The notes beneath the pieces were generated by a model that did no database searches, had not been told where the DNA came from, and was given only the letters and a program-made list of their open reading frames with translations. This document shows, one piece after another, positions 2,402 to 48,997 of a stretch of 64,000 nt of DNA; position 1 is the first letter of the stretch, and each line of letters starts with the position of its first letter. Source of the stretch: Verrucomicrobiales bacterium (lineage in GTDB: Bacteria; Verrucomicrobiota; Verrucomicrobiia; Limisphaerales; UBA11358); NCBI GenBank assembly GCA_028712475.1, contig JAQTQB010000012.1, positions 8,029 to 72,028 on the forward strand, read 5' to 3'. The position numbers were made by a program, and so were the translations under genes.

Positions 2402-4616
2402 AATGAATTCGGAAGCGGCTTTGAAGAAGCCGGTCTGTCGCTTGTCGCAAATCACGTTCCCCCTTACCCCGGCCCTCCCCCTCGGGGAGAGGGGGCGGCG
2501 GGCGGACGCCTTCAGTTTTTTTAACAGCCGTCCGGTAAATCGAGCCGCAGTTTTTTCTCCGCGACGGGATGCAATTCTCCCTCTCCTCCGGGGAGAGGGC
2601 CGGGGTGAGGGGAAAAGGAGATCCCACATTTCGAGCCGCGTCGCCGCTCTGATCAGCTTGGTTTTTCTTTCCGCATTTTCCCTCCGTGCCGCCGCGCTGC
2701 CAGTCGAATGGCAGCACACGCAGCAATTTGACGTCGCCACACCTGGCCTCGTAAAGATCAGCCTGCCGGTCGAAACACTCGATGCCGCCCGGCCTGCGCT
2801 CGAAGACTTGCGGCTCTACGACAGCGCCGGCAATGAAGCGCCGTTTCTTATCACGCGGCCGGTTCCATCTGGAAAAATTATCCAAAGCGCGAAGTTATTT
2901 CAGGCTTCGCTCAACGCTGCGGCCACCGTCATCACGCTCGAAACCGGGCTGGCGCAGCCGCTCGATGGCGTCACGCTCGAAACCCCGTCGCAAAATTTCA
3001 TCAAGGCGGTGCGCGTCGAGAGTTCTGCGGACGGCAAAACCTGGCACATGCTCGTTCAAGGCCGGCCGGTTTTCCGCCAGCCCTATGGCGCGAATCAATT
3101 GCACGTCTCCTTTCCGCCGGGTGTTGCAAAATGGCTGCGGCTGACCGTGGACGACCAGCGTTCGCCACCAGTTCCCTTCACCGGCGCACGCGTTCATGCG
3201 GCGGCGGGCGAACCTGTGCCGGCTGAATGGTTGCCGGCGGCGATCACCGAGCGCGTTGAAAATCCCGGCGAAACCCGGCTTGCGCTGAACCTGGGCGCGG
3301 CCAATCTGGACATTGCGGCGGTGCAAGTTGAAACCGACGAACCGCTCTTCACGCGCACCGTCACGCTTGCCATGCCGCAAATCATGGAGAACGGAGTTGT
3401 TGAGAATGCAATTGGCCGCGGCGTGATTTATCGCGTGGCCATCGAGGGCCAGCCAGCATCGGCCAGTCTTTCCGTGCCGCTGGAAACGCAGGTCCGTTCG
3501 CGTGAACTGGTGCTGACCATCAATAACGGCGACAGTCCGCCGCTGCCCGTTCCCACCGTGCGCGTCGAGCGGCGTCCGGTTTATCTCGTGTTCCTTGCGC
3601 GGGCGGCGGGAACTTATCATCTGCTCACCGGCAACAGGCTTTGTGCCGCGCCGCGTTACGATCTGGCGGCGTTGGGCGCGGATTTGAAAAACGCCATCGC
3701 GACGCCGGTGAAAATTTCCGCGCCCGTAAACAATCCGGATTACCGCGCACCCGAAGCGCTGGCCGGGCTTGAAGTGGCGGGCGCGGCACTGGACATTTTC
3801 GCATGGAAATATCGCAAGCCGATGTTGAAGATTTCCAACGGCGGCGCGCAGCAATTGGAACTCGGCCTCGACGTGCTCGCGCACGCGGACGCGGGCTTCG
3901 CGGATTTGCGCGTGATGCGCGGCAGCAATCAAGTGCCATATCTCGTGCAACGCACGTCCATCAGCCGCGCGCTGAAGCTGACGGCGCTTCCGATCAGCGA
4001 CCCGAAAAATCCAAAGTTGAGTCGCTGGCTTATCCAACTGCCGGAATCCAATTTGCCGCTCACGCGATTGACTTGCACAACGATCACGCCACTGTTTCGG
4101 CGCACGCTGTTACTTTTTGAACAAGTGACTGACGAACGCGGCAGCACTTATCGCCATTCGCTCGGCAACGCCGATTGGACGCAAATGCCGGAACGCAAGG
4201 GGAATGAATTTTCAATGTCGTTCACCGGCCCGACGCAAAGCCATTTGTTGATTCTCGAAACGGAGAACGGCGACAATCCGCCGATTGCACTGAAAGATTT
4301 CACGGCGTTTTATCCGGCGACGCGCGTGTTGTTCAAGGCGAAGACCGGTGACGTGCTGTTTCTTTACTACGGCAATCCACGCGTGCCGCCGCCGAGTTAT
4401 GACTTGAGCCTCGTCGCCGGCGAATTGCTCGCCGCCGACAAAATGACGCCGACGATTTTTCCCGAAGAGCAGTTGAAAAAATCGTCGTGGGCGGAAAGCC
4501 AGGCGCCGGGCAGCGGCGGCATTGTGTTCTGGGGAATTCTCGCCGTGGTCGTGGTCGGATTGCTGGTCGTCATCATGCGGCTGCTGCCGAAAGCGCAGAC
4601 GCCGCCGGCGGCGTAG
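2391..4616 (+). CDS. secreted/anchored beta-rich protein, DUF3999-like; start uncertain
   Basis: Signal-like stretch RVAALISLVFLSAFSLRAAALP, a long beta-rich body and a single C-terminal TM IVFWGILAVVVVGLLVVIMRLL. It directly follows the DUF2339-like gene. The first ATG (2391) would translate the repeat element at 2458-2612. AAGGAG at 2615-2620 precedes in-frame ATT 2628, CTG 2649 and TTG 2658. Confidence 0.55.
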   Translation: MRNEMNSEAALKKPVCRLSQITFPLTPALPLGERGRRADAFSFFNSRPVNRAAVFSPRRDAILPLLRGEGRGEGKRRSHISSRVAALISLVFLSAFSLRAAALPVEWQHTQQFDVATPGLVKISLPVETLDAARPALEDLRLYDSAGNEAPFLITRPVPSGKIIQSAKLFQASLNAAATVITLETGLAQPLDGVTLETPSQNFIKAVRVESSADGKTWHMLVQGRPVFRQPYGANQLHVSFPPGVAKWLRLTVDDQRSPPVPFTGARVHAAAGEPVPAEWLPAAITERVENPGETRLALNLGAANLDIAAVQVETDEPLFTRTVTLAMPQIMENGVVENAIGRGVIYRVAIEGQPASASLSVPLETQVRSRELVLTINNGDSPPLPVPTVRVERRPVYLVFLARAAGTYHLLTGNRLCAAPRYDLAALGADLKNAIATPVKISAPVNNPDYRAPEALAGLEVAGAALDIFAWKYRKPMLKISNGGAQQLELGLDVLAHADAGFADLRVMRGSNQVPYLVQRTSISRALKLTALPISDPKNPKLSRWLIQLPESNLPLTRLTCTTITPLFRRTLLLFEQVTDERGSTYRHSLGNADWTQMPERKGNEFSMSFTGPTQSHLLILETENGDNPPIALKDFTAFYPATRVLFKAKTGDVLFLYYGNPRVPPPSYDLSLVAGELLAADKMTPTIFPEEQLKKSSWAESQAPGSGGIVFWGILAVVVVGLLVVIMRLLPKAQTPPAA
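2458..2612. repeat. composite ~155-nt element with GC-rich terminal inverted repeats (GEGRGEG-type)
   Basis: The left end ccccttaccccggccctc is nearly the reverse complement of the right end gagggccggggtgagggg. Each end also carries an inner ctcccc/ggggagag palindrome. A homologous copy in opposite orientation lies at 61918-62072. Confidence 0.7.
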
Positions 4617-4700: not shown

Positions 4701-5876
4701 ATGAAAAAGAGCCTGATTGCCCTCATCGTTCTTTGCCTCGGTTTTTCATTGTTGACCGCGCACGCGGCAATTTCCACCACCACCGCACCAGCCGATAAAA
4801 ATTCGCCCGGCAAGGAAATGGCCCAGACCCTTTCCATGATAACCGGCGTGGCGATTTCACCGCTCATGGGCGTTGGCGTGGTCGGGGCGTGGGAATATTT
4901 TCAAGCCAAGACGCCCGAGCAGAAAGCCAGGCTCCATTGGTTTGCCAATCCGTGGTTCTGGATTCCCGCGCTGCTGCTCGTCACGGCGTGTTTCGTGAAA
5001 GATTCCGCCGGCGTCGTTTTGCCGCCGGTTTTGAAAAAACCCTTCGACGTGGCCGAAACCATCGAACACAAAATCAGCGGCCTCGTGGCCACCGGCGCGT
5101 TTGTGCCGATTGCCGCCTCGATTTTTCACGCCAGCGGCAGCGGCGATGGCGCGTTGTGGAGCGCCGCCGGTTTTGCGGCCATTGATCTCTCATGGCTTTA
5201 CAACGCACTGATGGTTCCGATTGCGATGGCGGCATTTTTCATCGTGTTCCTCGCGTCCAACGCCATCAACATCCTCATCCTCATCAGCCCGTTCGGCGTG
5301 CTGGATGCCGCCCTCAAGGCGTTCCGCACGTCCATCATCGCCAGCGTCGCCGTCACCTCGTTCGCCAACCCGTGGATCGGCGCGGCGTGGGCTCTCATCA
5401 TCATCCTGGTTTCCTGGCTCATCGCAGGCTGGTCGTTCCGGCTCTCGCATTTTGGACTCTCATTCATCTGGGATTTTGTCACGCTCCGTTCCAACCGCTT
5501 CAAACCGGACCCGACCGCGAACAAGATGTTTCTTGGCCGGAAAATAAACGGAGTTCCCGCCCGCACTTACGGCAGATTAAGCCGCGATGAAAAGGGCGGT
5601 CTCGTCCTGAAATATCATCCATGGCTCGTGCTGCCCGGGCGCAGCCTCACGTTGCCCGAGACAAAATACGCCGCCGGCAAAGGGGTTTTCTTCTCGGAAA
5701 TTTTGCAGCTCGACGGTGACAGCGCCAAGATCGCCCTGCTGCTGCCGCCGCGCTACCGTTCGCACGAATACGAGATCGTCGCCATCTACGGCCTCACGGA
5801 TGTGCGCGACACCGGTTTGCTCGCCGTGTGGTCTTGGATTAAAATGATGATGGGCTTCAAAACCAAGACCGCCTGA
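4701..5876 (+). CDS. membrane protein of unknown function (signal peptide plus several TM helices; possibly DUF4126-like N-terminal half)
   Basis: N-terminal MKKSLIALIVLCLGFSLLTAHA, then multiple hydrophobic helices and a soluble C-terminal ~130 aa. No catalytic motif was recognised. Confidence 0.5.
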   Translation: MKKSLIALIVLCLGFSLLTAHAAISTTTAPADKNSPGKEMAQTLSMITGVAISPLMGVGVVGAWEYFQAKTPEQKARLHWFANPWFWIPALLLVTACFVKDSAGVVLPPVLKKPFDVAETIEHKISGLVATGAFVPIAASIFHASGSGDGALWSAAGFAAIDLSWLYNALMVPIAMAAFFIVFLASNAINILILISPFGVLDAALKAFRTSIIASVAVTSFANPWIGAAWALIIILVSWLIAGWSFRLSHFGLSFIWDFVTLRSNRFKPDPTANKMFLGRKINGVPARTYGRLSRDEKGGLVLKYHPWLVLPGRSLTLPETKYAAGKGVFFSEILQLDGDSAKIALLLPPRYRSHEYEIVAIYGLTDVRDTGLLAVWSWIKMMMGFKTKTA

Positions 5877-6426: not shown

Positions 6427-6511
6427 CAATTTTGTAGGAGACGAGGTGACGAGACTCATTTCAAATCCGGGGCTTCAGTCAGAGCCTCCTCACGTCGGCT
6501 GCTACAATTTT
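6427..6511. repeat. palindromic ~85-nt element, family A (gtaggagacgaggtgacgag...gagcctcctcacgtcggctgctac)
   Basis: The imperfect inverted arms flank a tttcaaatccggggcttcagtca loop. Near-identical copy at 8618-8700, a third copy at 17406-17479 and a half copy at 61868-61905. Confidence 0.8.
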
Positions 6512-7842
6512 CAATAGACCAGCACCAGGACGGCTGCGTCCTGGGCGGATTTAACCACGTCTTCAAACTTCCGATCCGCGCTGACGGGGTCTTTCAGCTT
6601 GCTCGCCACGTCGGGGACGGACTCCAGGAAGCCCAGCAGAAAACTGCTCTTCACCGCGTAGTTCACATTCTCCGGCAACGCCCCGCTCGCGGCCAGCGCC
6701 GCCGCCGCATTCAGCTTGGCCGACACCACGCCCACCACATTGCCATGTTCATCCACCAGCGCGCCGCCCGAATTGCCCGGCTGCACCGGCACGCTGATCT
6801 GGAAATACCGCGCATCATCCGCCGCGCCGGAGAGCGACGCGATTTCGCCCCGCGCAAACTTCGGCGCGAACCCTTGCAGGCCGGTGTTGGGAAAACCCAC
6901 CGTCGCCACCGTGCCGCCCAATTTCACCGACCGGCTAGAAGTGATGGGCAAAGGCGAGAAATTAAGGTTGAATGATGAATTATGAAGGATGAAGTTAGGA
7001 TTTCCGGCCGTCGGCTTTTGCCCCGTTTCATCGTTCATAATTCTCCCTTCATCCTTGCCTGCGGCCCGCCCGTCCGCTTTCAACAAAGCCAGATCATTGG
7101 CCGCATCCACCTTCAACACCTTGGCGTCAATCAAACCGGCGCTCGTGAGCAAACGAACTTTCGTCGCATCCTTGACGACGTGATAATTGGAAATCAAATA
7201 ACCATCGGTCGTGATGAAAAAGCCAGAACCGCTGGCTGTCGGATCTTTTGCTGAAGCAGAAACTTCGAAACCTAATTCTTTATGCGGCTTAAATTCACGA
7301 GCCATCTGTTGTGCTTCTACAATTTGATTCAGCGTCATGTATTGGGCAAGTGTGTCCCTAGCGGCCTTTGCTCTAACACCAACTGGTTGCGATAATTTCT
7401 TTAAATATTCTATTTGTTCTGCAGTGATGTTTGGAAAATTTGTGATTGCATCCCAATTCATTTTGTCAGGAGAGGCGGCGGCGATATTGAACCATTTGTA
7501 GGCTTCGATAAAATCCTGACTTACTCCTTCCCCTTTCATATATTTTTCACCAATTGAGAATTGAGATTCGCTGTCTCCTTGATTCGCCGCGCGGAGATAC
7601 CACCTAGCTGCCTCGTTGGGATCAGGATCAATTCCTGAAATGGTTCCTATATCAAGAAAAAGTGCTAACGCGCGTTGAGAAAGTATTTCCCCATTTTCAG
7701 CACTTTTCCTAAACATTTGAACTTCGTTCTTCTGTTTGTCAGTGTTGTCAACGGTTGTCGGCGAGTTGGTTTGTGACGTAGCAGCCAATCCCAATATCAG
7801 AAACAGAAACAAAAAAACACAAATCAGCCAATTCGCTTTCAT
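6511..7842 (-). CDS. secreted Sel1-repeat / trypsin-like (S1C, HtrA-like protease domain) serine protease fusion
   Basis: Start chosen at the ATG giving signal peptide MKANWLICVFLFLFLILGLAATS. Sel1 signature AARWYLRAANQGDSESQFSIGEKYMKGEGVSQDFIEAYKWFNIAAA. Protease triad contexts NYHVV, DLALLK and GNSGGALVD. Confidence 0.8.
   Translation of the reverse strand: MKANWLICVFLFLFLILGLAATSQTNSPTTVDNTDKQKNEVQMFRKSAENGEILSQRALALFLDIGTISGIDPDPNEAARWYLRAANQGDSESQFSIGEKYMKGEGVSQDFIEAYKWFNIAAASPDKMNWDAITNFPNITAEQIEYLKKLSQPVGVRAKAARDTLAQYMTLNQIVEAQQMAREFKPHKELGFEVSASAKDPTASGSGFFITTDGYLISNYHVVKDATKVRLLTSAGLIDAKVLKVDAANDLALLKADGRAAGKDEGRIMNDETGQKPTAGNPNFILHNSSFNLNFSPLPITSSRSVKLGGTVATVGFPNTGLQGFAPKFARGEIASLSGAADDARYFQISVPVQPGNSGGALVDEHGNVVGVVSAKLNAAAALAASGALPENVNYAVKSSFLLGFLESVPDVASKLKDPVSADRKFEDVVKSAQDAAVLVLVY
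6950..7075. repeat. heptamer-periodic palindromic element lying in frame inside the protease gene
   Basis: gaatgatgaattatgaaggatgaag pairs with the ttcatcgttcataattctcccttcatcc arm. It is translated as ...NPNFILHNSSFNLNFSPL... between the catalytic Asp context and the rest of the protease domain. Confidence 0.6.
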
Positions 7843-7861
7843 GCCCGCAGAATAGTTGGTT

Positions 7862-8323
7862 TCAGTTTGCTGGCAAGCACCCAGAGTCGTCGTCCGTATA
7901 AATACTAGGCACATCTGGATACCACGCATAAGTAGAAGCAGGCTTGCCTCGCGTAAACAGCTTGAATCCGTGTTTTTCATACCAGGCTTCAAGTTTTTCT
8001 TGCTCCATAATGAGTGGTCCATCAGGAAGAGGCTTGTCCGGAGTGTAATACCTCACCTGACATGAAATACGAAAGTGATATTTACGCGAAAGTTCTTTCA
8101 AAAAATTAACGAGTGAATCCGCCGCTCTTCTGCTAGCGCCTGGCACTTTTTCCATTTTTGTAATCTCGATGTCGTCACCGTGCCAATTGATTAACGCAAT
8201 GGCTTGACCAAACTTTCGGAATTGGTCTGTGCCTTGCCATTTACCATTGTCATAAAAATGATCTTTGCAATGAGGTGTTGTATTAACCACCCATTCTTGT
8301 TGTGCCTGTTGAAGCGGAGTCAT
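7862..8323 (-). CDS. hypothetical protein, possibly GNAT-like fold
   Basis: 153-aa ORF, visibly AT-richer, 20 nt upstream of and co-directional with the protease gene. The C-terminal LEAWYEKHGFKL resembles GNAT motif B. Weak call. Confidence 0.4.
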   Translation of the reverse strand: MTPLQQAQQEWVVNTTPHCKDHFYDNGKWQGTDQFRKFGQAIALINWHGDDIEITKMEKVPGASRRAADSLVNFLKELSRKYHFRISCQVRYYTPDKPLPDGPLIMEQEKLEAWYEKHGFKLFTRGKPASTYAWYPDVPSIYTDDDSGCLPAN

Positions 8324-9019: not shown

Positions 9020-10849
9020 ATGGCTGAAAAGAACAAACACAATTACGACGAGAGCAAGATCAAGACGCTGTCTTCCCTTGAGCACATCCGGCTGCGCACG
9101 GGCATGTATATCGGCCGCATCGGCAGCGGCGCGCATCCCGATGACGGCTGCTACGTCCTGCTCAAGGAGGTCGTGGACAACGCGATTGACGAATACATCA
9201 TGGGCCACGGCAAGGAGGTCGAGATCAAGATCGCCGATGGCCGCGTCAGCGTGCGCGATTTCGGCCGCGGCATCCCGCTCGGCAAGGTCGTGGACTGCGT
9301 TTCCAAGATCAACACCGGCGCGAAATACAACGACGACGTGTTTCAATTCAGCGTCGGCCTCAACGGCGTCGGCACGAAAGCGGTCAACGCGCTTTCAAAA
9401 TTCTTTCTAGTGCGCAGCCATCGCGACGGTGAATTTGCCGAAGCGTCGTTCAAAGTCGGCAAGCTGAAGAAAGAGGACACCGGCAAAACCAAAGAACCGA
9501 ACGGCACATTGATCGAGTTCGAGCCTGACCCGGAGATTTTCAAGGAGAGCGAGTTTCGCGACGAACATATCGAACGCCGCCTGCGCCATTACAGCTACCT
9601 GAACACGGGGCTGAAGCTGATCTACAACGGCAAGACGTTCCAGTCGCGCCACGGCCTGATGGATCTGGTGATGGAAGACATGGCAACCGATGGCAGCGAG
9701 CCGATCTATGCGCCGCTGCATTACGCCGGCAAAACGCTGGAGTTTTGCTTCACCCACAGCAACTCGCGCTACGGCGAGACGTTTTATTCCTTCGTCAACG
9801 GCCAATACACGAGCGACGGCGGCACGCATTTGAGCGCGTTCCGCGAGGGCTTGCTCAAGGCGGTGAACGAGCATTGCAACGGCAAATACGAGGGCGACGA
9901 CGTGCGCGAGTGCATGGTCGGCGCGGTGGCGATCCGGCTGAAAGATCCGCTGTTCGAATCGCAGACGAAGAACAAGCTTGGCAACACGGAAATCCGCACC
10001 GAACTGGTGAACAACGTGCGCGAGGAGCTGCTGCATTTTTTCCAGCGCAACAAGGCGATCGCCGACAAGATCATCGAGAAGGTGGCCGACACGCAGCAGT
10101 TGCGGAAGGAACTGCAGGCGGTGAAGAAGCTCGCACGCGAACGCGCCAAGTCCATCACGCTGCGCATCCCGCAGTTGAAGGACTGCAAAAATCATTTCGA
10201 CAAGAAGAAGGAAAAGGGCAAGGGCACGATGGTCTTCATCTGCGAAGGCCAGTCCGCCGCCGGCTCGATCACGAGCTGCCGCGACGTGAACAACCAGGCC
10301 GTGTTCGTGCTGAAAGGCAAGCCACTCAACGTCTGGGACCTCAAGCGCGACGTGATGTATAAGAACGACGAGATGTATAACCTCATGCAGTCGCTCAACG
10401 TCGAGGACAACACCGAAGGCCTGCGCTACGACAAGGTCATCCTCGCCACCGACGCGGACGTGGACGGCATGCACATCCGCAATCTGATGATCACGTATTT
10501 CTTCCGCTTCTTCGAGCAACTCGTCCACGACGGCCACGTCCATGTTTTGGAGACGCCATTGTTCCGCGTGCGCAACAAGGAGAAGACGATTTACTGCTAC
10601 AGCGAAACCGAGCGCGACAACGCCGTGAAAGAACTCGGCGGCAAACCGGAGATCACGCGGTTCAAAGGCTTGGGCGAAATCAGCCCGAAAGAATTCGCGC
10701 AATTCATCGGCAAGGAAATGCGGACGAGCAAAGTCGAATACGCGCCGCGCGCCGAGTCCGGTCCGATCTTCAACTTCTACATGGGCAAGAACACGCCGGA
10801 GCGGAAGGATTACATCATGGACCGGCTCGTCGTGCCGGTGGAGGAGTAA
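9020..10849 (+). CDS. parE: type IIA DNA topoisomerase subunit B (short, ParE-like)
   Basis: GHKL ATPase and TOPRIM motifs: LEHIRLRTGMYIG, LLKEVVDNAIDE, FICEGQSAAGS, ILATDADVDGMHI. 609 aa from ATG 9020 and lacks the long GyrB insertion. ParE versus GyrB was not resolved. Confidence 0.85.
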   Translation: MAEKNKHNYDESKIKTLSSLEHIRLRTGMYIGRIGSGAHPDDGCYVLLKEVVDNAIDEYIMGHGKEVEIKIADGRVSVRDFGRGIPLGKVVDCVSKINTGAKYNDDVFQFSVGLNGVGTKAVNALSKFFLVRSHRDGEFAEASFKVGKLKKEDTGKTKEPNGTLIEFEPDPEIFKESEFRDEHIERRLRHYSYLNTGLKLIYNGKTFQSRHGLMDLVMEDMATDGSEPIYAPLHYAGKTLEFCFTHSNSRYGETFYSFVNGQYTSDGGTHLSAFREGLLKAVNEHCNGKYEGDDVRECMVGAVAIRLKDPLFESQTKNKLGNTEIRTELVNNVREELLHFFQRNKAIADKIIEKVADTQQLRKELQAVKKLARERAKSITLRIPQLKDCKNHFDKKKEKGKGTMVFICEGQSAAGSITSCRDVNNQAVFVLKGKPLNVWDLKRDVMYKNDEMYNLMQSLNVEDNTEGLRYDKVILATDADVDGMHIRNLMITYFFRFFEQLVHDGHVHVLETPLFRVRNKEKTIYCYSETERDNAVKELGGKPEITRFKGLGEISPKEFAQFIGKEMRTSKVEYAPRAESGPIFNFYMGKNTPERKDYIMDRLVVPVEE

Positions 10850-10899
10850 TTTGTGAAACGGATTGTTTCCGGTTTTGAAAAACGGTATTTAATTTGACC

Positions 10900-11682
10900 A
10901 TGCTCCCGCGACTGAAAGTTGTATCGGTAATCAAACTGCTTTCGAGTGGTCGCACAAAGCCATGCCTTGTTCTTGCCCAAGACGCAGATGGTGTGGGATG
11001 TGAAGTTGTTGTCAAATGGCGTTCAGGCCCGGAAACAAAAGACACAGGTGGTGTATGCGAACTCATTAGTTCACTGCTCGCTGATGATTTTGACCTGCCT
11101 GCGCCAAAAGCAATGCTGGTTGAAGTTGAACCCGATTTTCATCGCGCTGTTCCTTGGCCAGAGATTGCAAAATTAGTGAAATCCAGCGCAGGCCCGAATT
11201 TTGCCACCGCATTTTTACCAAGCATGACAACTTGGCCTGCCGGAAAGCCAGTGGCGTCATCGTTGCGCACGCGTGCTTCAGAAATTTTTGCTTTTGACGC
11301 CTTGATCGAAAATCCAGACAGACGAGTTGACAAGCCAAACATACTTTGGAGCGGCGAAGATTTGCGGTTGTGTGACCACGAGCAGGCGTTTTCATTTCTG
11401 CACGGGGTCGTCGGTTGGCGTCCAGCTTGGTCGGGTCAGGGGCTTGAATTTCTCCGCAATCATGTGTTTTATGTCCAGTTGAAAGGTCAGACTTTTGATT
11501 GGAGCAGGTTGACGGGGGCACTGGAAGCTGTAAGCGACAAACGCTTGAAAGAATATGCTTCAGCTGTGCCGGCTGAATGGCAGACAGGAAACAGTGCAAC
11601 CAGTCAGGTTTTAGACTATCTTAAAGACGCGCGAAAAAACCGAGCCGCGTTGTTTACGGCCATTGACCAAATATTAAAATGA
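10900..11682 (+). CDS. HipA-like serine/threonine kinase family protein (short form)
   Basis: Catalytic-loop-like FDALIENPDRRVDKPNIL, then LRLCDHEQAF (Mg-binding Asp context) and an N-terminal lysine context EVVVKW. The stop overlaps the next start (ATGA). Visibly AT-richer than its flanks. Confidence 0.6.
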   Translation: MLPRLKVVSVIKLLSSGRTKPCLVLAQDADGVGCEVVVKWRSGPETKDTGGVCELISSLLADDFDLPAPKAMLVEVEPDFHRAVPWPEIAKLVKSSAGPNFATAFLPSMTTWPAGKPVASSLRTRASEIFAFDALIENPDRRVDKPNILWSGEDLRLCDHEQAFSFLHGVVGWRPAWSGQGLEFLRNHVFYVQLKGQTFDWSRLTGALEAVSDKRLKEYASAVPAEWQTGNSATSQVLDYLKDARKNRAALFTAIDQILK

Positions 11683-12521
11683 AAACCACATATACATTCA
11701 CCATTCTGCGATATGTGCATGACATCGCGACCGGCGAGTTCGTCAACATGGGCGTGGCGCTTTATGCGCCAGAGGCGAAATATGTCAGCGCCATTTGCTG
11801 CCCGCGCTACGGACGTTTGAGCAAGATGTTTCTCGACGTAAATGGCGACCAACTTCGTCCGCTCATGCGTTTCATCCAGGCACGTTTCGAGGAATATGCA
11901 TTGAAGTTGAACGGCGAACTGCCATTGCAAGGTCAGCCAAAGAGCGTCATGGAAATTGCCGCCAACATTCTTTCCCGGGATGACAGTTCTCTGCAATGGT
12001 CAGAATCCGGCGGCGGCATTACGGAAAATCCGAGCGCCACGCTCGAACAACTTTATGTTCGGCTCGTTGAAAAATACGAGATGCGCGCACAACTGCCCAG
12101 CCGCACCGACGATGAGGTTTGGCGCGGCTTCAAGAAGGAGCTGGAAATGAAACAAGTTCTGGCAAAACTACAGCCGAAGCGAATCATTGCCAAAGATTAC
12201 GAACACGAGTTTGACCACGCATGGAAAAACGGAACGTGGAATCTTTACCAGCCTGTTTCATTTGATTTGATTGATGCAGAAAGTCTCCTCGACAAAGCCA
12301 ACCGGTGGCTGGGTCGCGCCACAATTCTTAAAGAGTCGCAAGAGAGATTTAAGCTGCATGTTTTGTTGGGCGAGCCTCGCTTGGAGAAATTGAAATCCTC
12401 ATATGGTAAAGCTTTGAACATTCTTAACCGTATGCCGGTGAAAAAGGAATTCATCCGTGAAGATGAAGCGCCAAAATTTTCCAGAGATCTGGCGGACGAA
12501 ATTCAACATCACAAGGAATAG
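11679..12521 (+). CDS. DUF3037 domain protein
   Basis: The N-terminus YTFTILRYVHDIATGEFVNMGVALYAPE matches the remembered DUF3037 hallmark (xxRYvPdxxrgEfxNiGV). 280 aa, translationally coupled to the kinase gene. Confidence 0.65.
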   Translation: MKTTYTFTILRYVHDIATGEFVNMGVALYAPEAKYVSAICCPRYGRLSKMFLDVNGDQLRPLMRFIQARFEEYALKLNGELPLQGQPKSVMEIAANILSRDDSSLQWSESGGGITENPSATLEQLYVRLVEKYEMRAQLPSRTDDEVWRGFKKELEMKQVLAKLQPKRIIAKDYEHEFDHAWKNGTWNLYQPVSFDLIDAESLLDKANRWLGRATILKESQERFKLHVLLGEPRLEKLKSSYGKALNILNRMPVKKEFIREDEAPKFSRDLADEIQHHKE

Positions 12522-12627
12522 GCATAATCTGGCAACCTCCCGTCGTTATCTGAGAAGCTTCCATTCTTATCTGGGATGGCGCGCCAAATAGTTATCACCC
12601 GCTTAGGCTTTTTTAGCCCAGCAAATC

Positions 12628-14742
12628 ATGTCAGCCAAACGCAAAAAAGATTCCAGCCAGCCTGAATTGCCCATCGAAGGCATAACACCATCCGCCCCGG
12701 TGAAAACTAAATCCACCGGGGCCAATGGCAACGGCGCGGATCACGTCATCGCCGAAACGGTCGAGGCCGTTGTTCACAGGCCGTTTGACCCCAAACAATC
12801 GGGCGGCGGGTTGCATACGCGCGTGGATCGCGGATTTCTGGATTACGCCAGCTACGTCATCCGCGACCGCGCGATTCCGAATCTCGCCGATGGTTTGAAG
12901 CCGGTGCAGCGGCGCATCATGTGGGCGTTGCACGAGAAGGACGATGGTCGCTTCATCAAGGTCGCCAACGTGGTCGGCCATACGATGCAGTATCATCCGC
13001 ATGGCGACGCATCCATCGGCGACGCGCTCGTGGTGCTGGCGAACAAGCGTTACCTCATCGAAGGGCAGGGGAACTTCGGCAACATCTTCACCGGCGATCC
13101 CGCCGCCGCGTCGCGGTATATCGAGTGCCGGTTGACGGAACTGGCGCGCACAGAAGTTTTCAACGACTCCATCACCGAGTTCATTCCCAGCTACGACGGG
13201 CGCAACAAGGAGCCTGTGTCGCTGCCGTGCAAATTGCCGCTCACGCTCATGCTCGGCACGGAAGGCATCGCGGTCGGCTTGAGCGCTCGAATTTTGCCGC
13301 ACAATTTCCCCGAACTGCTCGAAGCGCAGATCGCGATTCTGAAAAAGCAGCCGTTCAAGTGTCTGCCGGATTTTCCGACCGGCGGCCTGATGGACGCGCG
13401 CGATTATCAGGACGGCAAAGGCTCGGTGAAAGTCCGCGCCAAGATCAAGACGAAAGACGAATCCACCGTCGTCATCAAGGAAATCCCGCCGACTACCACG
13501 ACGGAATCACTGATTGCGTCCATTGAAGACGCGGTGCAGAAGGGCAAGCTCAAGGTCAAATCCATCAACGATTTCACGTCCGAGACCGTCGAGATTGAGG
13601 TCAAATGTCCGGCGGGAGTGGACGCGGAAAAGCTGGTGGATGCGCTGTATGCCTTCACAGATTGCGAAGTTTCCATCGCGAGCCGCATCGTCGTCATCAA
13701 GGACAACCGGCCGGTCGAGCTGACCGTGTCGGAAATTCTGCGCGAGAACACGGAACAGCTTGTCCGCATTCTCAAACGTGAGCTTGAGTTGCGGGAGAAA
13801 AACCTGCTCGACGAACTGCATTACCGCACGCTCGAACGCATCTTCATCGAGGAACGCATCTACAAGGCGATTGAGAAGTGCAAGACGAACGAAGCGGTTT
13901 TGGCCAGCGTTTATGAAGGCTTCAAGCCGTTCAAGAAGCAACTCGTGCGCGAGATCGTGGATGCCGACGTGGAGAAGTTGTTGCAGGTTCGCATCCGCCG
14001 CATTTCGCTGTTCGACATCAACAAGCATCGCGAGGAGATGGAGAAGACGAAGGCCGAACTCACCGGGACGCTTAAAAATCTCAAGGGTCTCACGCGCTAT
14101 GTCATCGGCCATCTGGAGGCGTTGCTGGAAAAATACGGCCCGCTCTATCCGCGCTTGACCACGAAATCTGCGCGTCACGAGGAAGTGGACGTGAAGGCGG
14201 TGGCGTTCAAGTCGTTCAAGGTCGCCTATGACCGGGAGACCGGCTACGTCGGCTACAAAGTGAGCGGCGAGGAATTCAAGCTCGAATGCACAAAGTTTGA
14301 CAAGGTGCTGCTCGTGTTCAAGGACGGCACTTACAAGGTCACTGAACTGCCGGAAAAGTTTTTCGTCGGGCCGGAACTGTTCTACTGCGGTTTGCCCGAC
14401 CGCGAAAAGATTTTTACCTGCGCCTACACGGATCGCAATGCGAGCTACCTGAAGCGGTTCACATTTGGCGGCACGATTTTGAACAAGGCTTATTCGTGCA
14501 TTCCGGACAAATCGCGCATTTTATTTTTCGCTCCGGAAACGCCAAAGCTGCTTTACGTCCGCTACAAACCCGCGCTGCACCAGAAAATCTCGCAGCAGAC
14601 CTGCGAACCGGAGCAGGTGGAGGTGAAATCGCCCAAGACGCGCGGACGGCAGCTTTCCATCAAGGACATTTCGTCCGTGACCGCCGAACCGACGCGCGGC
14701 TGGGATGAAAAGGCGGCAACGACCAAAATCGTGTTTGCGTGA
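12628..14742 (+). CDS. parC: type IIA DNA topoisomerase subunit A (short, ParC-like)
   Basis: LDYASYVIRDRAIPNLADGLKPVQRRIMWAL and the active-site Tyr context AAASRYIECRLTELA. 704 aa with a short C-terminal domain. Confidence 0.85.
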   Translation: MSAKRKKDSSQPELPIEGITPSAPVKTKSTGANGNGADHVIAETVEAVVHRPFDPKQSGGGLHTRVDRGFLDYASYVIRDRAIPNLADGLKPVQRRIMWALHEKDDGRFIKVANVVGHTMQYHPHGDASIGDALVVLANKRYLIEGQGNFGNIFTGDPAAASRYIECRLTELARTEVFNDSITEFIPSYDGRNKEPVSLPCKLPLTLMLGTEGIAVGLSARILPHNFPELLEAQIAILKKQPFKCLPDFPTGGLMDARDYQDGKGSVKVRAKIKTKDESTVVIKEIPPTTTTESLIASIEDAVQKGKLKVKSINDFTSETVEIEVKCPAGVDAEKLVDALYAFTDCEVSIASRIVVIKDNRPVELTVSEILRENTEQLVRILKRELELREKNLLDELHYRTLERIFIEERIYKAIEKCKTNEAVLASVYEGFKPFKKQLVREIVDADVEKLLQVRIRRISLFDINKHREEMEKTKAELTGTLKNLKGLTRYVIGHLEALLEKYGPLYPRLTTKSARHEEVDVKAVAFKSFKVAYDRETGYVGYKVSGEEFKLECTKFDKVLLVFKDGTYKVTELPEKFFVGPELFYCGLPDREKIFTCAYTDRNASYLKRFTFGGTILNKAYSCIPDKSRILFFAPETPKLLYVRYKPALHQKISQQTCEPEQVEVKSPKTRGRQLSIKDISSVTAEPTRGWDEKAATTKIVFA

Positions 14743-17121: not shown

Positions 17122-17631
17122 TTACAACAACGCCCGCTGAATCCGCCGCAGCAGACGCGCTTCGTTTTGTGGTTTCATGGTGGCCCGCCGCAAGGTGTGT
17201 TCCCAGATCCGCAGCACCCACCAATTGGCCGACCGCAAGGTCCGTGTCACCAAAAGATCGCGGGCGATGTTGCGGGCAAATTTGTTTTTCCAGAAGGCGC
17301 GGTTGCCCTTGGGATGGGTCCCGTGCTTGGGACAGCCATGCCAGAAACAACCGTCCACGAAGACCGCCGTGCGCGATTTGGGAAAAACAAAATCCACCCT
17401 CACCCATAGCAGCCGAGGTGACGAGGCTCCGACTGATTTTCGGATAGAAGAATGAGCCTCCTCACGTCGGCTGCTACGAACGGCGAGGGTGACCTGCCGC
17501 CGCCAGCCGGTGATTTTGTGCCGGCGGAATAGTTTTGCCAGCGCGACCTCCGTGTCCTGGTTTCCGCGCGAGCGGATGTGCGACATCACTTCCGAACGCT
17601 TGGATTTGGAAAACACATCAGCCATAGACAC
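17122..17631 (-). CDS. vsr: very-short-patch repair endonuclease (Vsr) carrying an in-frame repeat insertion
   Basis: KSKRSEVMSHIRSRGNQDTE, DFVFPKSRTAVFVDGCFWHGCP, NRAFWKNKFARNIARD and WWVLRIWEH. About 30 extra residues sit between GWRRQ and VDFVFP and coincide with the family A repeat. Confidence 0.8.
   Translation of the reverse strand: MSMADVFSKSKRSEVMSHIRSRGNQDTEVALAKLFRRHKITGWRRQVTLAVRSSRREEAHSSIRKSVGASSPRLLWVRVDFVFPKSRTAVFVDGCFWHGCPKHGTHPKGNRAFWKNKFARNIARDLLVTRTLRSANWWVLRIWEHTLRRATMKPQNEARLLRRIQRALL
17406..17479. repeat. family A palindromic element inside vsr
   Basis: atagcagccgaggtgacgaggctcc...gagcctcctcacgtcggctgctacga. Homologous to 6427-6511 and 8618-8700. Confidence 0.75.
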
Positions 17632-18031
17632 AGATTACACTAATTTCCACAGATTCAATCCGTGCCAATCCGTGAAATCCGTGTGTCGCTTCGCTGACGC
17701 CGTTCTTCGCGTCCAAAAACGAAGTTGAAGTTTCTGAAACAAGAGAAAACGAATATCAACTCTACCGTTTGTTCAATTTTACTCGGCAACCAAAGCTTTT
17801 TGTTTTACCTGGATCGCTTCGTAATACTTGTTCGCTCGACCCAATCCAGTATGCAGCACTGCCGCGCTGAAATTATTTCAGCCGGTTGATTTTGATTTCC
17901 TTTTCGACGGCCAGGAACTCATCGTAGATTGCGATGAGTTCTCCGTTCCCGTGGCGGACCCCCATCCAATGGGCGAGGGATACAAGAGTGAGAAGTTTTC
18001 CTTGCGTGCTTGGCACTCTTTTGCGGCCATG

Positions 18032-18277
18032 TCAGCGTTCCCTTTCCCGCTTCCGTTCCGCCATGAAGGTTTCCATCGCCTTGGTGCCTTTCAAGGAGCC
18101 GCGCAGGCTTTTGATGTAGGAACGGGTGATGGGTTTCAGCAGGATGCCTTCGGGAGTGGAAACGACCGTGGCCTTGGTGCCTTCCTCAATCTTAAATTCC
18201 TTGCGCAGGCGGCGGGGAATCACCACCTGGCCCTTCGTGCCGAAATTCACGGTCTCCAGCTTCAAGGTCGCAATCAT
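18032..18277 (-). CDS. AbrB/MazE/SpoVT-family antitoxin-like DNA-binding protein
   Basis: 81 aa. The swapped-hairpin motif GTKGQVVIPRRLRKEFKIEEGTKATVVSTPEGILLKP is followed by a charged tail. Confidence 0.7.
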   Translation of the reverse strand: MIATLKLETVNFGTKGQVVIPRRLRKEFKIEEGTKATVVSTPEGILLKPITRSYIKSLRGSLKGTKAMETFMAERKRERER

Positions 18278-18438
18278 GCAGGCAAGTTAGACCGGAATTC
18301 AAAAGCATGTCAAATCTGCTTCGTATGACTTGTTGACAATTGTAGCCGGCGCGGCGGGGCGGCTAAGTTTTCTTTCGTCCAAACCGGTTTTTAACAAAGC
18401 CATGGGAGCATTTTCGCCCGCCTCCCGTCAGACTGGAT

Positions 18439-25596: not shown

Positions 25597-26610
25597 ATGA
25601 GTGAGCAGAACCAGTTTCTCCTCTACACCGCGCCGGACGGGGCGGTGAAGGTGGATGTTGTCTTGAAGGACGAGACGGTGTGGCTGACGCAGAAAGCGCT
25701 GGCAGAGTTGTTCGGCGTGAAGCGACCGGCCATCACGAAGCACTTGCAGAACATCTTCGCCACCGGGGAGCTGGCCGAGGATTCAGTATGTTCCATTTTG
25801 GAACATACTGCCGGGGACGGAAAAACTTACTCGGCCAAATATTACAATCTCGATGCCATCATTGCCGTTGGCTACCGCGTCAACAGCTATCAGGCCACGC
25901 AGTTCCGCATCTGGGCGACGAAGACGCTGCGGGAATTCATTATCAAGGGTTTCGTGATGGATGACGAACGGCTGAAGCAGGGCAAGCAGGTCTTCGGCAA
26001 GGATTATTTCGACGAGTTGCTGGAACGCATCCGGGAAATCCGGGCCAGCGAGCGGCGGTTTTATCAGAAGCTCACGGACATTTACGCGCTGGCGGTGGAT
26101 TACAGTCCCGATGCGCCGGTGACGAAGGAGTTTTTCGCCACCGTGCAGAACAAGCTGCACTGGGCGATCACCGGCCAGACGGCGGCGGAGTTGATCTACG
26201 CCGCCGCCGATGCGACGAAGATTTACATGGGGCTGACGACGTGGAAGCACGCGCCGGGCGGAAAGATTCTGAAGTCGGATGTGACCGTGGCTAAGAATTA
26301 TTTGAGCGAGGCGCACGTAAAGGAATTGAACCGCATCGTCTCGGCCTACCTCGACCTGGCGGAGAACCGGGCCGAGCGGGGCATCCTGATGAAGATGACG
26401 GACTGGGCCAAGTTTCTGAACAGTTTTCTGGAGTTGTCGAACTACCCGATTCTGCAAGACAAAGGCAAGGTGAGCGCGCTGGAGGCGAAGCTCAAAGCGG
26501 AAGGCGAATACGAGGTGTATCGCCAGCGACAGGACGCCGAATACATCTCGGACTTCGATCGGGAGATCAAACACATCGAAGGCAGGAAACCCAAGCCGCC
26601 GAAGGAATGA
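25597..26610 (+). CDS. RhuM-family protein
   Basis: N-terminal LYTAPDGAVKVDVVLKDETVWLTQKALAELFGVKRPAITKHLQNIF and YNLDAIIAVGYRVNSYQATQFRIWATKTLREF are typical of RhuM-family proteins as I recall them. Confidence 0.7.
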   Translation: MSEQNQFLLYTAPDGAVKVDVVLKDETVWLTQKALAELFGVKRPAITKHLQNIFATGELAEDSVCSILEHTAGDGKTYSAKYYNLDAIIAVGYRVNSYQATQFRIWATKTLREFIIKGFVMDDERLKQGKQVFGKDYFDELLERIREIRASERRFYQKLTDIYALAVDYSPDAPVTKEFFATVQNKLHWAITGQTAAELIYAAADATKIYMGLTTWKHAPGGKILKSDVTVAKNYLSEAHVKELNRIVSAYLDLAENRAERGILMKMTDWAKFLNSFLELSNYPILQDKGKVSALEAKLKAEGEYEVYRQRQDAEYISDFDREIKHIEGRKPKPPKE

Positions 26611-31363: not shown

Positions 31364-31717
31364 TGGTGGAGGCGGCGGGAATTGAACCCGCGTCCCAAGT
31401 CAACCTGCCAGCCGCGACTACATGCTTATTTCGGATAAAGTTTTCTGCTGTGCGATACTGTCCGAACTCAAGTCGCACTGCCTAGTCCGCATGATAAGAT
31501 CTCGGCCGACAACGCGCAGTCTCCGTCATCAACCATGCCTGCTGTTGCGTTCCTCCACCGTAGCAGGTGTCCAGTGGTGAACGTCGAGGCACTTAGGCCG
31601 CGAGAGCTAGTTCTTGATTAGCTGTTTTGTTTTGATGCGGATGATTAACGAGGCCAACGCATCGTCCTCGGCATGCCGCCTCTGGCGTGTTCACATGGTC
31701 GAAACCAGTGCGCCCCC
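31364..31717 (-). ncRNA. ssrA: tmRNA (SsrA)
   Basis: The reverse strand starts GGGGGCGCACTGGTTTCGAC and ends GGGTTCAATTCCCGCCGCCTCCACCA. The acceptor stem pairs with a G3:U wobble. There is an internal in-frame tag ...GCT AAT CAA GAA CTA GCT CTC GCG GCC TAA (ANQELALAA-stop). The resume codon was not proven. Confidence 0.9.
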
Positions 31718-34572: not shown

Positions 34573-35010
34573 TCAAATTACATGAAACCCGATTTCTCTG
34601 CGTTGTTCTTCTTTTTTGACTTCTTCGACGTAACACAAAATTTGAAGAGTATCTTGGTGGCAGAGAAGCAAACACGGACTGCCATCAATATCACCTTCAA
34701 TCAGTATTCCATGATGAGATTCTTGGGAAAGTTGTTTTACATTCACGCACGCCCCATTAGCTAAAACCGCTAGAACCACTGCCTGTTGATTTTGCGGAAG
34801 CTGTTTTTTCCAATGGTTGATTCGCGCAGCGAGCCGTGAAACCATCACACCTGCGGATTCAAACTTATGACGCTCTTCATTCGTGGGCATGCGAATGTGT
34901 TGGATTGGCGGATAATTCATTGCCGGAATCCTCAAGTTTGCAAAAGCGTCGGTCATGCCTTTTGCAAAAGCACTAATACCCGGCGCGTTAAAGTTTGAAT
35001 CGGCTGACAT
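34573..35010 (-). CDS. hypothetical protein (145 aa), start 3 nt after the dnaK stop
   Basis: The ATG at 35010 follows the dnaK TAA (35016-35014) by 3 nt. Visibly AT-richer codon usage. No motif recognised. Confidence 0.45.
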   Translation of the reverse strand: MSADSNFNAPGISAFAKGMTDAFANLRIPAMNYPPIQHIRMPTNEERHKFESAGVMVSRLAARINHWKKQLPQNQQAVVLAVLANGACVNVKQLSQESHHGILIEGDIDGSPCLLLCHQDTLQILCYVEEVKKEEQRREIGFHVI

Positions 35011-42485: not shown

Positions 42486-42562
42486 GCGAGCGTAGCTCAG
42501 CCTGGTAGAGCATCACGTTGCCAACGTGAGTGTCGAGGGTTCGAATCCCTTCGCTCGCTCCA
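42486..42562 (+). tRNA. tRNA-Gly (anticodon GCC), CCA encoded
   Basis: Cloverleaf folded by hand: acceptor GCGAGCG/CGCTCGC, D-arm GCTC-AGCCTGGTA-GAGC, anticodon arm TCACG-TTGCCAA-CGTGA, T-arm GAGGG-TTCGAAT-CCCTT, discriminator U, CCA. Confidence 0.93.
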
Positions 42563-48923: not shown

Positions 48924-48997
48924 TGGTTGCCCGACGTGGATTTGAACCACGACAAACAGATTCAGAGTCTGCTGTGCTACCGTTACACCATCGGGCA
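48924..48997 (-). tRNA. tRNA-Gln (anticodon CUG), CCA encoded, antisense to the nuo operon
   Basis: The reverse complement folds by hand: acceptor TGCCCGA/TCGGGCA (U1:A72), anticodon arm GCAGA-CTCTGAA-TCTGT, T-arm CGTGG-TTCAAAT-CCACG, then A-CCA. 74 nt. Confidence 0.88.

Follow-up and report, generated by a model that had tools for sequence, protein, structure and literature searches.

Why do two small genes lie between parE and parC, the genes for the B and A subunits of a type IIA topoisomerase, in a Limisphaerales (Verrucomicrobiota) bacterium? The window analysed here is a stretch of 64,000 nucleotides (nt) of contig JAQTQB010000012.1 from this organism. The genes in question, hereafter the cassette, encode a serine/threonine kinase of the HipA_2 family (10900..11682, + strand; PF20613, PDC-M66A), predicted to be a toxin, and a DUF3037 protein (11679..12521, + strand; PF11236, PDC-M66B), its predicted antitoxin or sensor partner. 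A preliminary description of the sequence had placed the end of parE at 10849 and the start of parC at 12628, with two same-strand genes between them, and had taken the pair for a kinase-based toxin/partner or abortive-infection module of undescribed mechanism. The listing of open reading frames (ORFs) reproduced these boundaries, and the three peptide motifs that had been quoted are all present in the translations. We put at about three in four the probability that the cassette is a HipAD/PDC-M66/DS-6 defence islet in a short parE-parC spacer, with a kinase toxin neutralised by the DUF3037 protein and a position that is merely opportunistic.

The pair is a distant new member of an anti-phage system already described and validated, composed of a HipA_2 kinase and a DUF3037 protein (PDC-M66, DS-6 or HipAD). 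In E. coli, DS-6 (HipAD) is a two-gene operon with anti-phage activity, and a D139A mutant of its kinase loses defence (PMC13092281, DefensePredictor, Science 2026); a citation in that paper also credits HipAD to Brenes & Laub (Cell Host Microbe 2025). A HipA/DUF3037 pair beside Retron-Sda1 was likewise found to be a stand-alone defence, which is abolished by deletion of the kinase (PMC12548924, PLoS Biol 2025). Deletion of the DUF3037 gene of that pair is toxic, which gives the partner a neutralising role and supersedes the earlier statement that DUF3037 has no assigned function. The PDC-M66 models are paired candidate models of PADLOC-DB v2 (2023) with a bioinformatic definition only. The proposal of a kinase-based toxin/partner, abortive-infection or toxin-antitoxin (TA) module is thus supported by a homologous validated system. 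The words "undescribed mechanism" are fair as regards the molecular target and the phage trigger, but not as regards the system itself, which has been described.

Sequences of DS-6A and DS-6B were taken from the supplement of PMC13092281 and compared with the window pair by profile alignment. Using hhalign, a profile of 57 kinase homologues matched DS-6A with a probability of 98.1% (E 1e-13), with D139 of DS-6A (LNADR) aligned onto D140 of the window kinase (ENPDR), and a profile of 58 DUF3037 homologues matched DS-6B with a probability of 95.1% (E 3e-8) over residues 1-217. In addition, DS-6A and DS-6B match the same PADLOC models, PDC-M66A and PDC-M66B, as the window pair. Because PADLOC, hhalign, gene order, the 4-bp overlap and the catalytic Asp agree, membership in this family is well supported.

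Profile searches bore out both family assignments of the preliminary description. The product of the first gene matches Pfam PF20613, HipA_2 (E 6.6e-18, 65 bits, cutoff 27) and PDC-M66A (E 5.2e-64, covering 3-261 of 262 amino acids, aa). Seven residues (K39, E54, N138, R141, N147, D159 and H160) are invariant in the alignment of the 57 homologues, and D140 is kept in >90% of aligned sequences. The catalytic loop N138-P-D140-R141...N147 is accompanied by D159-H160-E161, and the Lys, Glu and Mg-binding residues are conserved. An AlphaFold2 (AF2) model of the kinase has a predicted local distance difference test score (pLDDT) of 94.5 and a predicted template modelling score of 0.92, and its best fold matches in the PDB are PI4KIIalpha, H. 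pylori CtkA, Rio kinases and Legionella HipT. Single-sequence and profile searches of solved structures returned nothing meaningful for either cassette protein, and the kinase profile reached no HipA or HipT. Loci of relatives are numbered here L001-L080 for parC loci and L081-L143 for cassette loci and further contigs. Relative to L001, the ratio of nonsynonymous to synonymous substitution rates (dN/dS) of the kinase gene is 0.09, as compared with 0.05-0.07 for parE and parC. To judge from these comparisons, the kinase has its catalytic residues intact and is under purifying selection. At the sensitivity of a word-indexed search, 94 homologues of the kinase and 1,608 of the DUF3037 protein were found.

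The second product matches Pfam PF11236 over residues 7-130 (E 5.7e-16) and PDC-M66B over 3-279 of its 280 aa (E 1.5e-82). It is composed of the N-terminal DUF3037 domain (aa 7-130) and a C-terminal alpha/beta domain (aa ~160-280), and in its AF2 model (pLDDT 86) the two halves are each well folded, with a floppy linker between them. A fold search with this model against the PDB gave no significant match (best E 0.017), the search being limited by the two-domain model with its flexible linker. Weak PDB matches of the C-terminal half were to restriction-endonuclease-like proteins (Can2/Card1, BstEII, R.BspD6I, EcoO109I and Mus81), and weak matches in a viral fold library were to unnamed phage-metagenome proteins, a DUF1828 protein and Rpb5-like folds. 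Since the C-terminal domain shows no conserved canonical D...(D/E)xK motif across the family alignment, it more likely has a non-catalytic binding role. No helix-turn-helix Pfam match was found in the protein, and DUF1829 was not detected by Pfam in 58 family members at E<=5. The restriction-endonuclease-like and DUF1828-like fold hints are compatible with the DUF1829 call made for DS-6B; because that call had an HHpred probability of just 0.78 in the original work, DUF1829 is a weak annotation of DS-6B and not a defining feature of the family. The dN/dS of the DUF3037 gene relative to L001 is 0.03.

The pair behaves as a unit. Decay was counted in 39 non-redundant loci (among L081-L143) in which 800 nt or more precede the DUF3037 gene. 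An intact kinase gene abuts the DUF3037 gene in 29 of them; the kinase is frameshifted in two and truncated in five, with the DUF3037 ORF intact, and in the remaining three no kinase was detectable. This asymmetric decay, in which the kinase is lost and DUF3037 kept, fits the prediction for a toxin/antitoxin pair. All kinase-anchored contexts have DUF3037 downstream, and the order with the kinase upstream and the genes overlapping or abutting was found in all intact homologous loci. Genomic contexts are diverse: homologues at 75-87% identity adjoin recA/DsbA, SIR2/DUF1186/SEC-C or PLD-like genes, and in more distant homologues the cassette comes after a gene for a TPP enzyme, a sigma-54 gene or ppdK. 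Family members also occur on plasmids of Vibrio, Hymenobacter and Rhodobacteraceae and, as distant relatives, on 12 IMG/VR viral contigs, where they are carried at proviral contig ends; a tblastn search of the GenBank phage collection gave no match to the cassette proteins. The recA-linked cassette locus L082 shares no synteny with the window past the cassette itself. The pair is mobile as a unit.

Some neighbours of these cassettes were recorded separately. A prokaryotic STING-domain gene, a defence-type neighbour, lies directly past the ppdK remnant that follows the cassette in L129 (6005-6961, - strand). Genes for SEC-C-motif/HEAT or DUF1186 proteins adjoin cassettes in unrelated contexts (L001:4068-4973 and L084:1925-4229); this proximity may be a coincidence or a loose association.

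All four genes of the locus are on the same strand. The parE-like gene for the B subunit (9020..10849, +) matches Pfam DNA_gyraseB, Toprim and HATPase_c and NCBIfam gyrB/parE models; its true start is likely ATG 9020 rather than the listed TTG 8957, because the latter adds 21 poorly conserved residues. The parC-like gene for the A subunit (12628..14742, +) matches Pfam DNA_topoisoIV (E 1.6e-106) and NCBIfam NF007209, "topoisomerase IV subunit A" (823 bits, cutoff 644). Amino acid identity to the L001 orthologues is 96-97% for ParE and 94% for ParC. The kinase ORF was listed from TTG 10894 (10894-11682), its homologues keep ATG 10900 as the start, and the product has 260-262 aa depending on the start chosen. 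Its stop codon shares ATGA with the start of the DUF3037 gene (11679-11682), an overlap claimed earlier and seen in a direct read of the sequence.

By its composition, the cassette is foreign to its flanks. For 10850-12627 the GC content comes to 0.488, at the 0.3rd percentile among same-size windows, where the window mean is 0.578 (sd 0.03), and GC at third codon positions (GC3) is 0.437 in the kinase gene and 0.559 in the DUF3037 gene, against 0.838 in parE and 0.757 in parC. An impression by eye that the cassette is richer in AT was therefore correct. Only the two ORFs are present in the insert; no integrase, transposase or phage gene was found within it, matches between its ends as flanking or att-type repeats were at chance level, and the cassette spacers gave no Rfam match and no tRNA at the borders. 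The left spacer (10850..10899, +, 50 nt) contains a palindrome, GAAAC-N5-GTTTC, at 10855-10869. It is kept with the cassette in the parE-linked loci L001, L119 and L123, is partly conserved in L082 and is absent at empty sites, and it may serve as a promoter or operator. The right spacer between cassette and parC (12522..12627, +, 106 nt) has no homology to the DNA upstream of parC in L001 or at empty sites, where homology restarts at ~12625, and no parE remnant above shuffled controls. RNA folding revealed no significant structure in either spacer, and promoter and terminator scans of the locus gave counts no higher than background. No terminator-like site was found on the + strand at either border of the cassette, so read-through into parC, together with cotranscription with parE, is plausible from the sequence.

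How unusual the position is was assessed by a ParC scan with one genome per species, which provided 80 loci and placed the source within Limisphaerales (Verrucomicrobia subdivision 3). The cassette was present in one of these species-representative parC loci, L001, and is an islet specific to its lineage. In 34 of the 43 loci with both genes visible parE abuts parC, as expected from the earlier view that a normally contiguous pair is interrupted here. Among relatives with at least 67% ParC identity, which represent the order of the window, parE was adjacent to parC in 8 of 27 informative loci, separated by a gap in 4 and absent within 2.5-10 kb in 15; in more distant phyla the two genes were adjacent in 26 of 40 loci. 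The parE-parC linkage is unusually unstable in the window's order. In L014, a 32-nt scrap of the parE 3' end lies ~380 nt upstream of parC. Because empty sites of close relatives carry just 10-35 nt from the parE stop to the parC start, the empty site is taken as ancestral.

Metagenomic contigs provided further parE-linked cassettes: L088 (the same as L001), L119, L123, L125 and probably L124. In a ParE tree, the cassette-bearing window and L001, as well as L119, are interleaved with the empty-site loci L002, L004, L006, L007 and L061, which implies more than one gain or several losses. Toward the cassette, the identity of L119 parE to that of its empty-site sister L004 falls from 97% to 83%, and over the same stretch its identity to the window rises from 81% to 87%. 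This drift hints at a recombination tract that arrived together with the cassette, without proving it. Synonymous divergence (dS) between the window and L001 is 0.77 and 2.25 for the cassette genes, as compared with 0.38 and 0.48 for parE and parC; the higher cassette values are compatible with allele exchange, and relaxed codon bias could contribute.

Other cargo was seen in the parE-parC spacers of other loci: a PADLOC PDC-S31/DUF2971-like gene with a 464-aa gene showing a weak restriction endonuclease match (L024:6463-8559), a Gp49/HigB-XRE pair (L060:8960-9653), a HEPN protein (L064:9468-9848), a four-helix-bundle protein (L067:9512-9907) and a ~900-aa secreted Zn-metalloprotease (L019:7185-9839 and L022:7153-9897). 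The additional genes in the gap of L001 (SEC-C, a small TA-like pair, PPK2-like and permease genes) were found in no other locus and nowhere else in the window. The cassette's location between parE and parC is probably opportunistic, without a functional tie to topoisomerase IV, and would reflect a harmless, transcribed landing spot; we favour this reading because the pattern matches that of TA islets between core genes (PMC13617665).

Several related cassettes are flanked by duplicated ends of host genes. In L123, intact parE, hipA and duf3037 are followed by a degenerate copy, ~200-230 nt long, of the 3' end of parE with its stop codon (z ~73 against shuffles; direct repeats at 570-768 and 2461-2668). 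In L129-131, a cassette of another subclade, whose kinase is 55% identical, follows ppdK, and the final ~273 nt of that gene recur behind the cassette at ~97% identity (direct repeats at 3628-3896 and 5650-5918 in L129). In L001, a degraded parE 3' remnant stands ahead of hipA, and 31 nt of the parE terminus are repeated after a block made up of the HipA/DUF3037 pair and a RelE-like pair (repeat coordinates 5068-5168 and 7360-7390). No integrase is present at the repeat-flanked cassettes of L123, L129 and L001. The recA/DsbA-linked locus L082 (the same as L081 and L083), whose kinase gene is frameshifted, has no topoisomerase genes nearby and still carries a 64-nt parE 3' remnant directly upstream of hipA (5102-5165), a 13-mer from the same parE region after the duf3037 stop codon (6841-6853) and a second degenerate 64-nt parE copy 3.6 kb downstream (10476-10539). 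A repeat search with shuffled controls found no such host-gene duplication at the window cassette itself. A duplicated gene end was also seen in another form: in L125 (2508-2582) and L124 (1690-1764), a remnant of the first ~24 parC codons, fused to a copy of the last parE codons (CCGGTGGAGAAATAA), comes ahead of a gene for a peptidase S9, which is a further insertion at this junction and separates the cassette from an intact parC.

The repeats point to spread by recombination without an integrase: single-crossover (Campbell-type) integration of circular DNA or of DNA with one-sided homology, bearing a piece of the 3' end of the host gene, would give such duplications. A broader idea, which we regard as doubtful, is that these cassettes spread by a specific integrase-free route, landing directly behind the stop codon of a conserved and well-expressed host gene, duplicating the last ~30-270 nt of the gene and moving on with scraps of it. 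Candidate routes may include Campbell-type integration of an excised cassette circle, one-sided homology capture during transformation and homing assisted by the endonuclease-like domain of the DUF3037 protein. If true, a dedicated gene-end-duplicating route would add a new mode of movement for defence or TA islets, and would also explain the window copy inside the parE-parC operon.

As a defence islet, the cassette might work as follows. The 260-aa kinase would be a growth-arresting toxin, and the DUF3037 protein, whose translation the ATGA overlap would couple to that of the kinase, would bind and neutralise the kinase and may bind DNA as well. Phage infection would free or activate the kinase, which would then phosphorylate a protein that the host (or the phage) cannot do without; HipA and HipT suggest, by analogy, a translation component, for example an aminoacyl-tRNA synthetase. 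The infected cell would stop growing and the infection would abort. The cassette itself would spread by recombination through conserved flanking genes. Trigger, substrate, abortive outcome and activity in this host are inferred; anti-phage activity, the need for the catalytic Asp and the toxicity of DUF3037 loss are predicted here by analogy with the E. coli and Sphingobacterium homologues.

Some observations weigh against this explanation. The surroundings in the window are rich in housekeeping genes (groESL, dnaK, nuo) and do not form a defence island; a RhuM/PDC-S05 homologue 13 kb away is the closest gene with a candidate role in defence. Over aligned regions the window pair is only ~23-29% identical to the validated DS-6 proteins; therefore specificity, and even activity, could differ. 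Moreover, the partner is better conserved than the kinase in the same loci (67-77% versus 50-57% identity), a pattern not usual in a simple antitoxin and one that points to a role beyond neutralising. A purely selfish addiction islet, whose loss kills the cell and which brings the host no meaningful anti-phage benefit, would account for a cassette that sits alone between core genes with no mobile-element or defence genes alongside, like TA islets (PMC13617665), and for decay of the kinase in 7 of 39 loci with DUF3037 persisting, a typical form of TA erosion. We consider it unlikely, as two independent studies found that homologues give protection from phages (PMC13092281, PMC12548924), relatives occur at proviral contig ends and one adjoins a prokaryotic STING gene, and both genes are under strong purifying selection. 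That erosion might also suggest that the cassette is what remains, inactive and decaying, of an old insertion, given the relatives with frameshifted or truncated kinases; this is the least credible explanation, because both window ORFs have their full length, the kinase keeps every catalytic residue and dN/dS is 0.03-0.09.

Two further possibilities concern the position of the cassette rather than its benefit. Some toxins, such as CcdB, the ParE toxin and FicT, target type IIA topoisomerases, and the kinase could in principle regulate or target topoisomerase IV (ParE/ParC), or the cassette could have been co-opted to control parC expression. The cassette does lie inside the operon, with no terminator-like sites at its borders, and the arrangement recurs in L001/L088, L119, L123 and L125. 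Yet this linkage is limited to one subclade of closely related Limisphaerales, other members lie by unrelated genes, on viral contigs or on plasmids, sister genomes have empty parE-parC sites, and the same junction bears different cargo elsewhere. A functional position is thus highly improbable, and topoisomerase targeting was rejected because the genomic contexts of the family are so diverse. It is very unlikely, too, that the cassette mobilises itself, with the restriction-endonuclease-like C-terminal domain of DUF3037 acting as a homing-type nuclease at the 3' ends of conserved genes. Such an activity would agree with the weak PD-(D/E)xK fold matches and the weak HHpred match of DS-6B to DUF1829, of the PDDEXK clan, with the patchy distribution in sister genomes, with the drift in L119 parE, which resembles a conversion tract, and with the duplicated host-gene 3' ends that flank the cassette in L123 and L129-131. 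However, the domain lacks a conserved canonical D...(D/E)xK motif and its fold matches are not significant (best E 0.017), homing normally creates no 200-270-nt flanking duplications, and homologue genetics gives the DUF3037 protein an antitoxin role (PMC12548924).

Several other features of the window were recorded. A second low-GC patch (6511-8323, - strand; GC ~0.42-0.45) holds a 503-aa Sel1-repeat/trypsin-like protease gene (GC3 0.56) and an overlapping 153-aa ORF without a family match; between conserved anchors the window is here ~1.4 kb longer than L001, and the patch is probably another insertion. The protease domain has a weak match to PADLOC RT-protease models. The RhuM-family gene (25597-26610, +; Pfam E 5.8e-111) matches PADLOC PDC-S05 over its full length (E 7e-150) and is followed by MoxR-like, DUF58-like and transglutaminase-like genes. 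Directly downstream of dnaK, in the dnaK-groES interval, lies a 145-aa ORF (34573-35010, -; GC3 0.39) that matches nothing in Pfam or PADLOC and may be a further short piece of foreign DNA within a group of housekeeping genes. A gene for a Vsr very-short-patch-repair endonuclease adjoins a 166-aa ORF with GC3 0.53 and no family match (17122-17631, -, and 17828-18328, +); no methyltransferase partner was noticed in passing near the Vsr gene. A tmRNA gene (31364-31717, -) encodes the tag peptide ANQELALAA, and tRNA genes for Gly (42486-42562) and Gln (48924-48997) are present.

The finding extends to Verrucomicrobiota a kinase-based anti-phage system that is validated but of unsolved mechanism; the system is widespread, with 1,608 homologues of the DUF3037 partner. 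The finding also provides a clean natural case of a defence or TA islet tolerated in an essential operon, which matters for tools that search defence islands only. Work on what the kinase phosphorylates, on what triggers it and on the role of the conserved DUF3037 partner could draw on the family alignments and the confident structure models, and the flanking gene-end duplications are a testable lead on the movement of islets that have no integrase. None of these findings overturns current understanding.

Comparison with known systems places the pair as follows. The window pair is far closer to both PDC-M66 models than DS-6 is, and no sequence-level difference from PDC-M66 was detected. DS-6/HipAD has the same order, with the kinase gene first and the DUF3037 gene second, and the same 4-bp overlap; it differs in its host, a member of Proteobacteria, and the window pair is chromosomal, between two essential genes and outside a prophage or accessory region. 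The pair beside Retron-Sda1, likened by domain content, has the same two domains, but no retron reverse transcriptase or noncoding RNA is near the window cassette (no Rfam match). With HipBA and HipBST the window pair shares a serine/threonine kinase toxin of the HipA superfamily, a HipT/CtkA-like fold and a protein partner from the same operon. In contrast to these systems, it has no HipB (with its helix-turn-helix) or HipS, the upstream gene being parE, and its toxin gene precedes the partner gene; HipA of HipBA has ~440 aa with HipA_C/Couple_hipA, whereas the window kinase has 260 aa and a HipA_2 match only. Features of an integrase-borne genomic island or prophage (integrase, transposase, att repeats, tRNA) were not found at the insert. 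Chromosomal TA islets that lie alone between core genes spread by homologous recombination at those genes (PMC13617665). The window cassette resembles them as a lone two-gene module between two conserved genes, without integrase or transposase, with patchy presence among sister genomes and alternative cargo at the same spot. It differs in that the inserts of several relatives are flanked by 30-270-nt duplications of host gene ends, which the islet model does not predict. The "minimal mobile elements" of naturally transformable bacteria are comparable to such islets.

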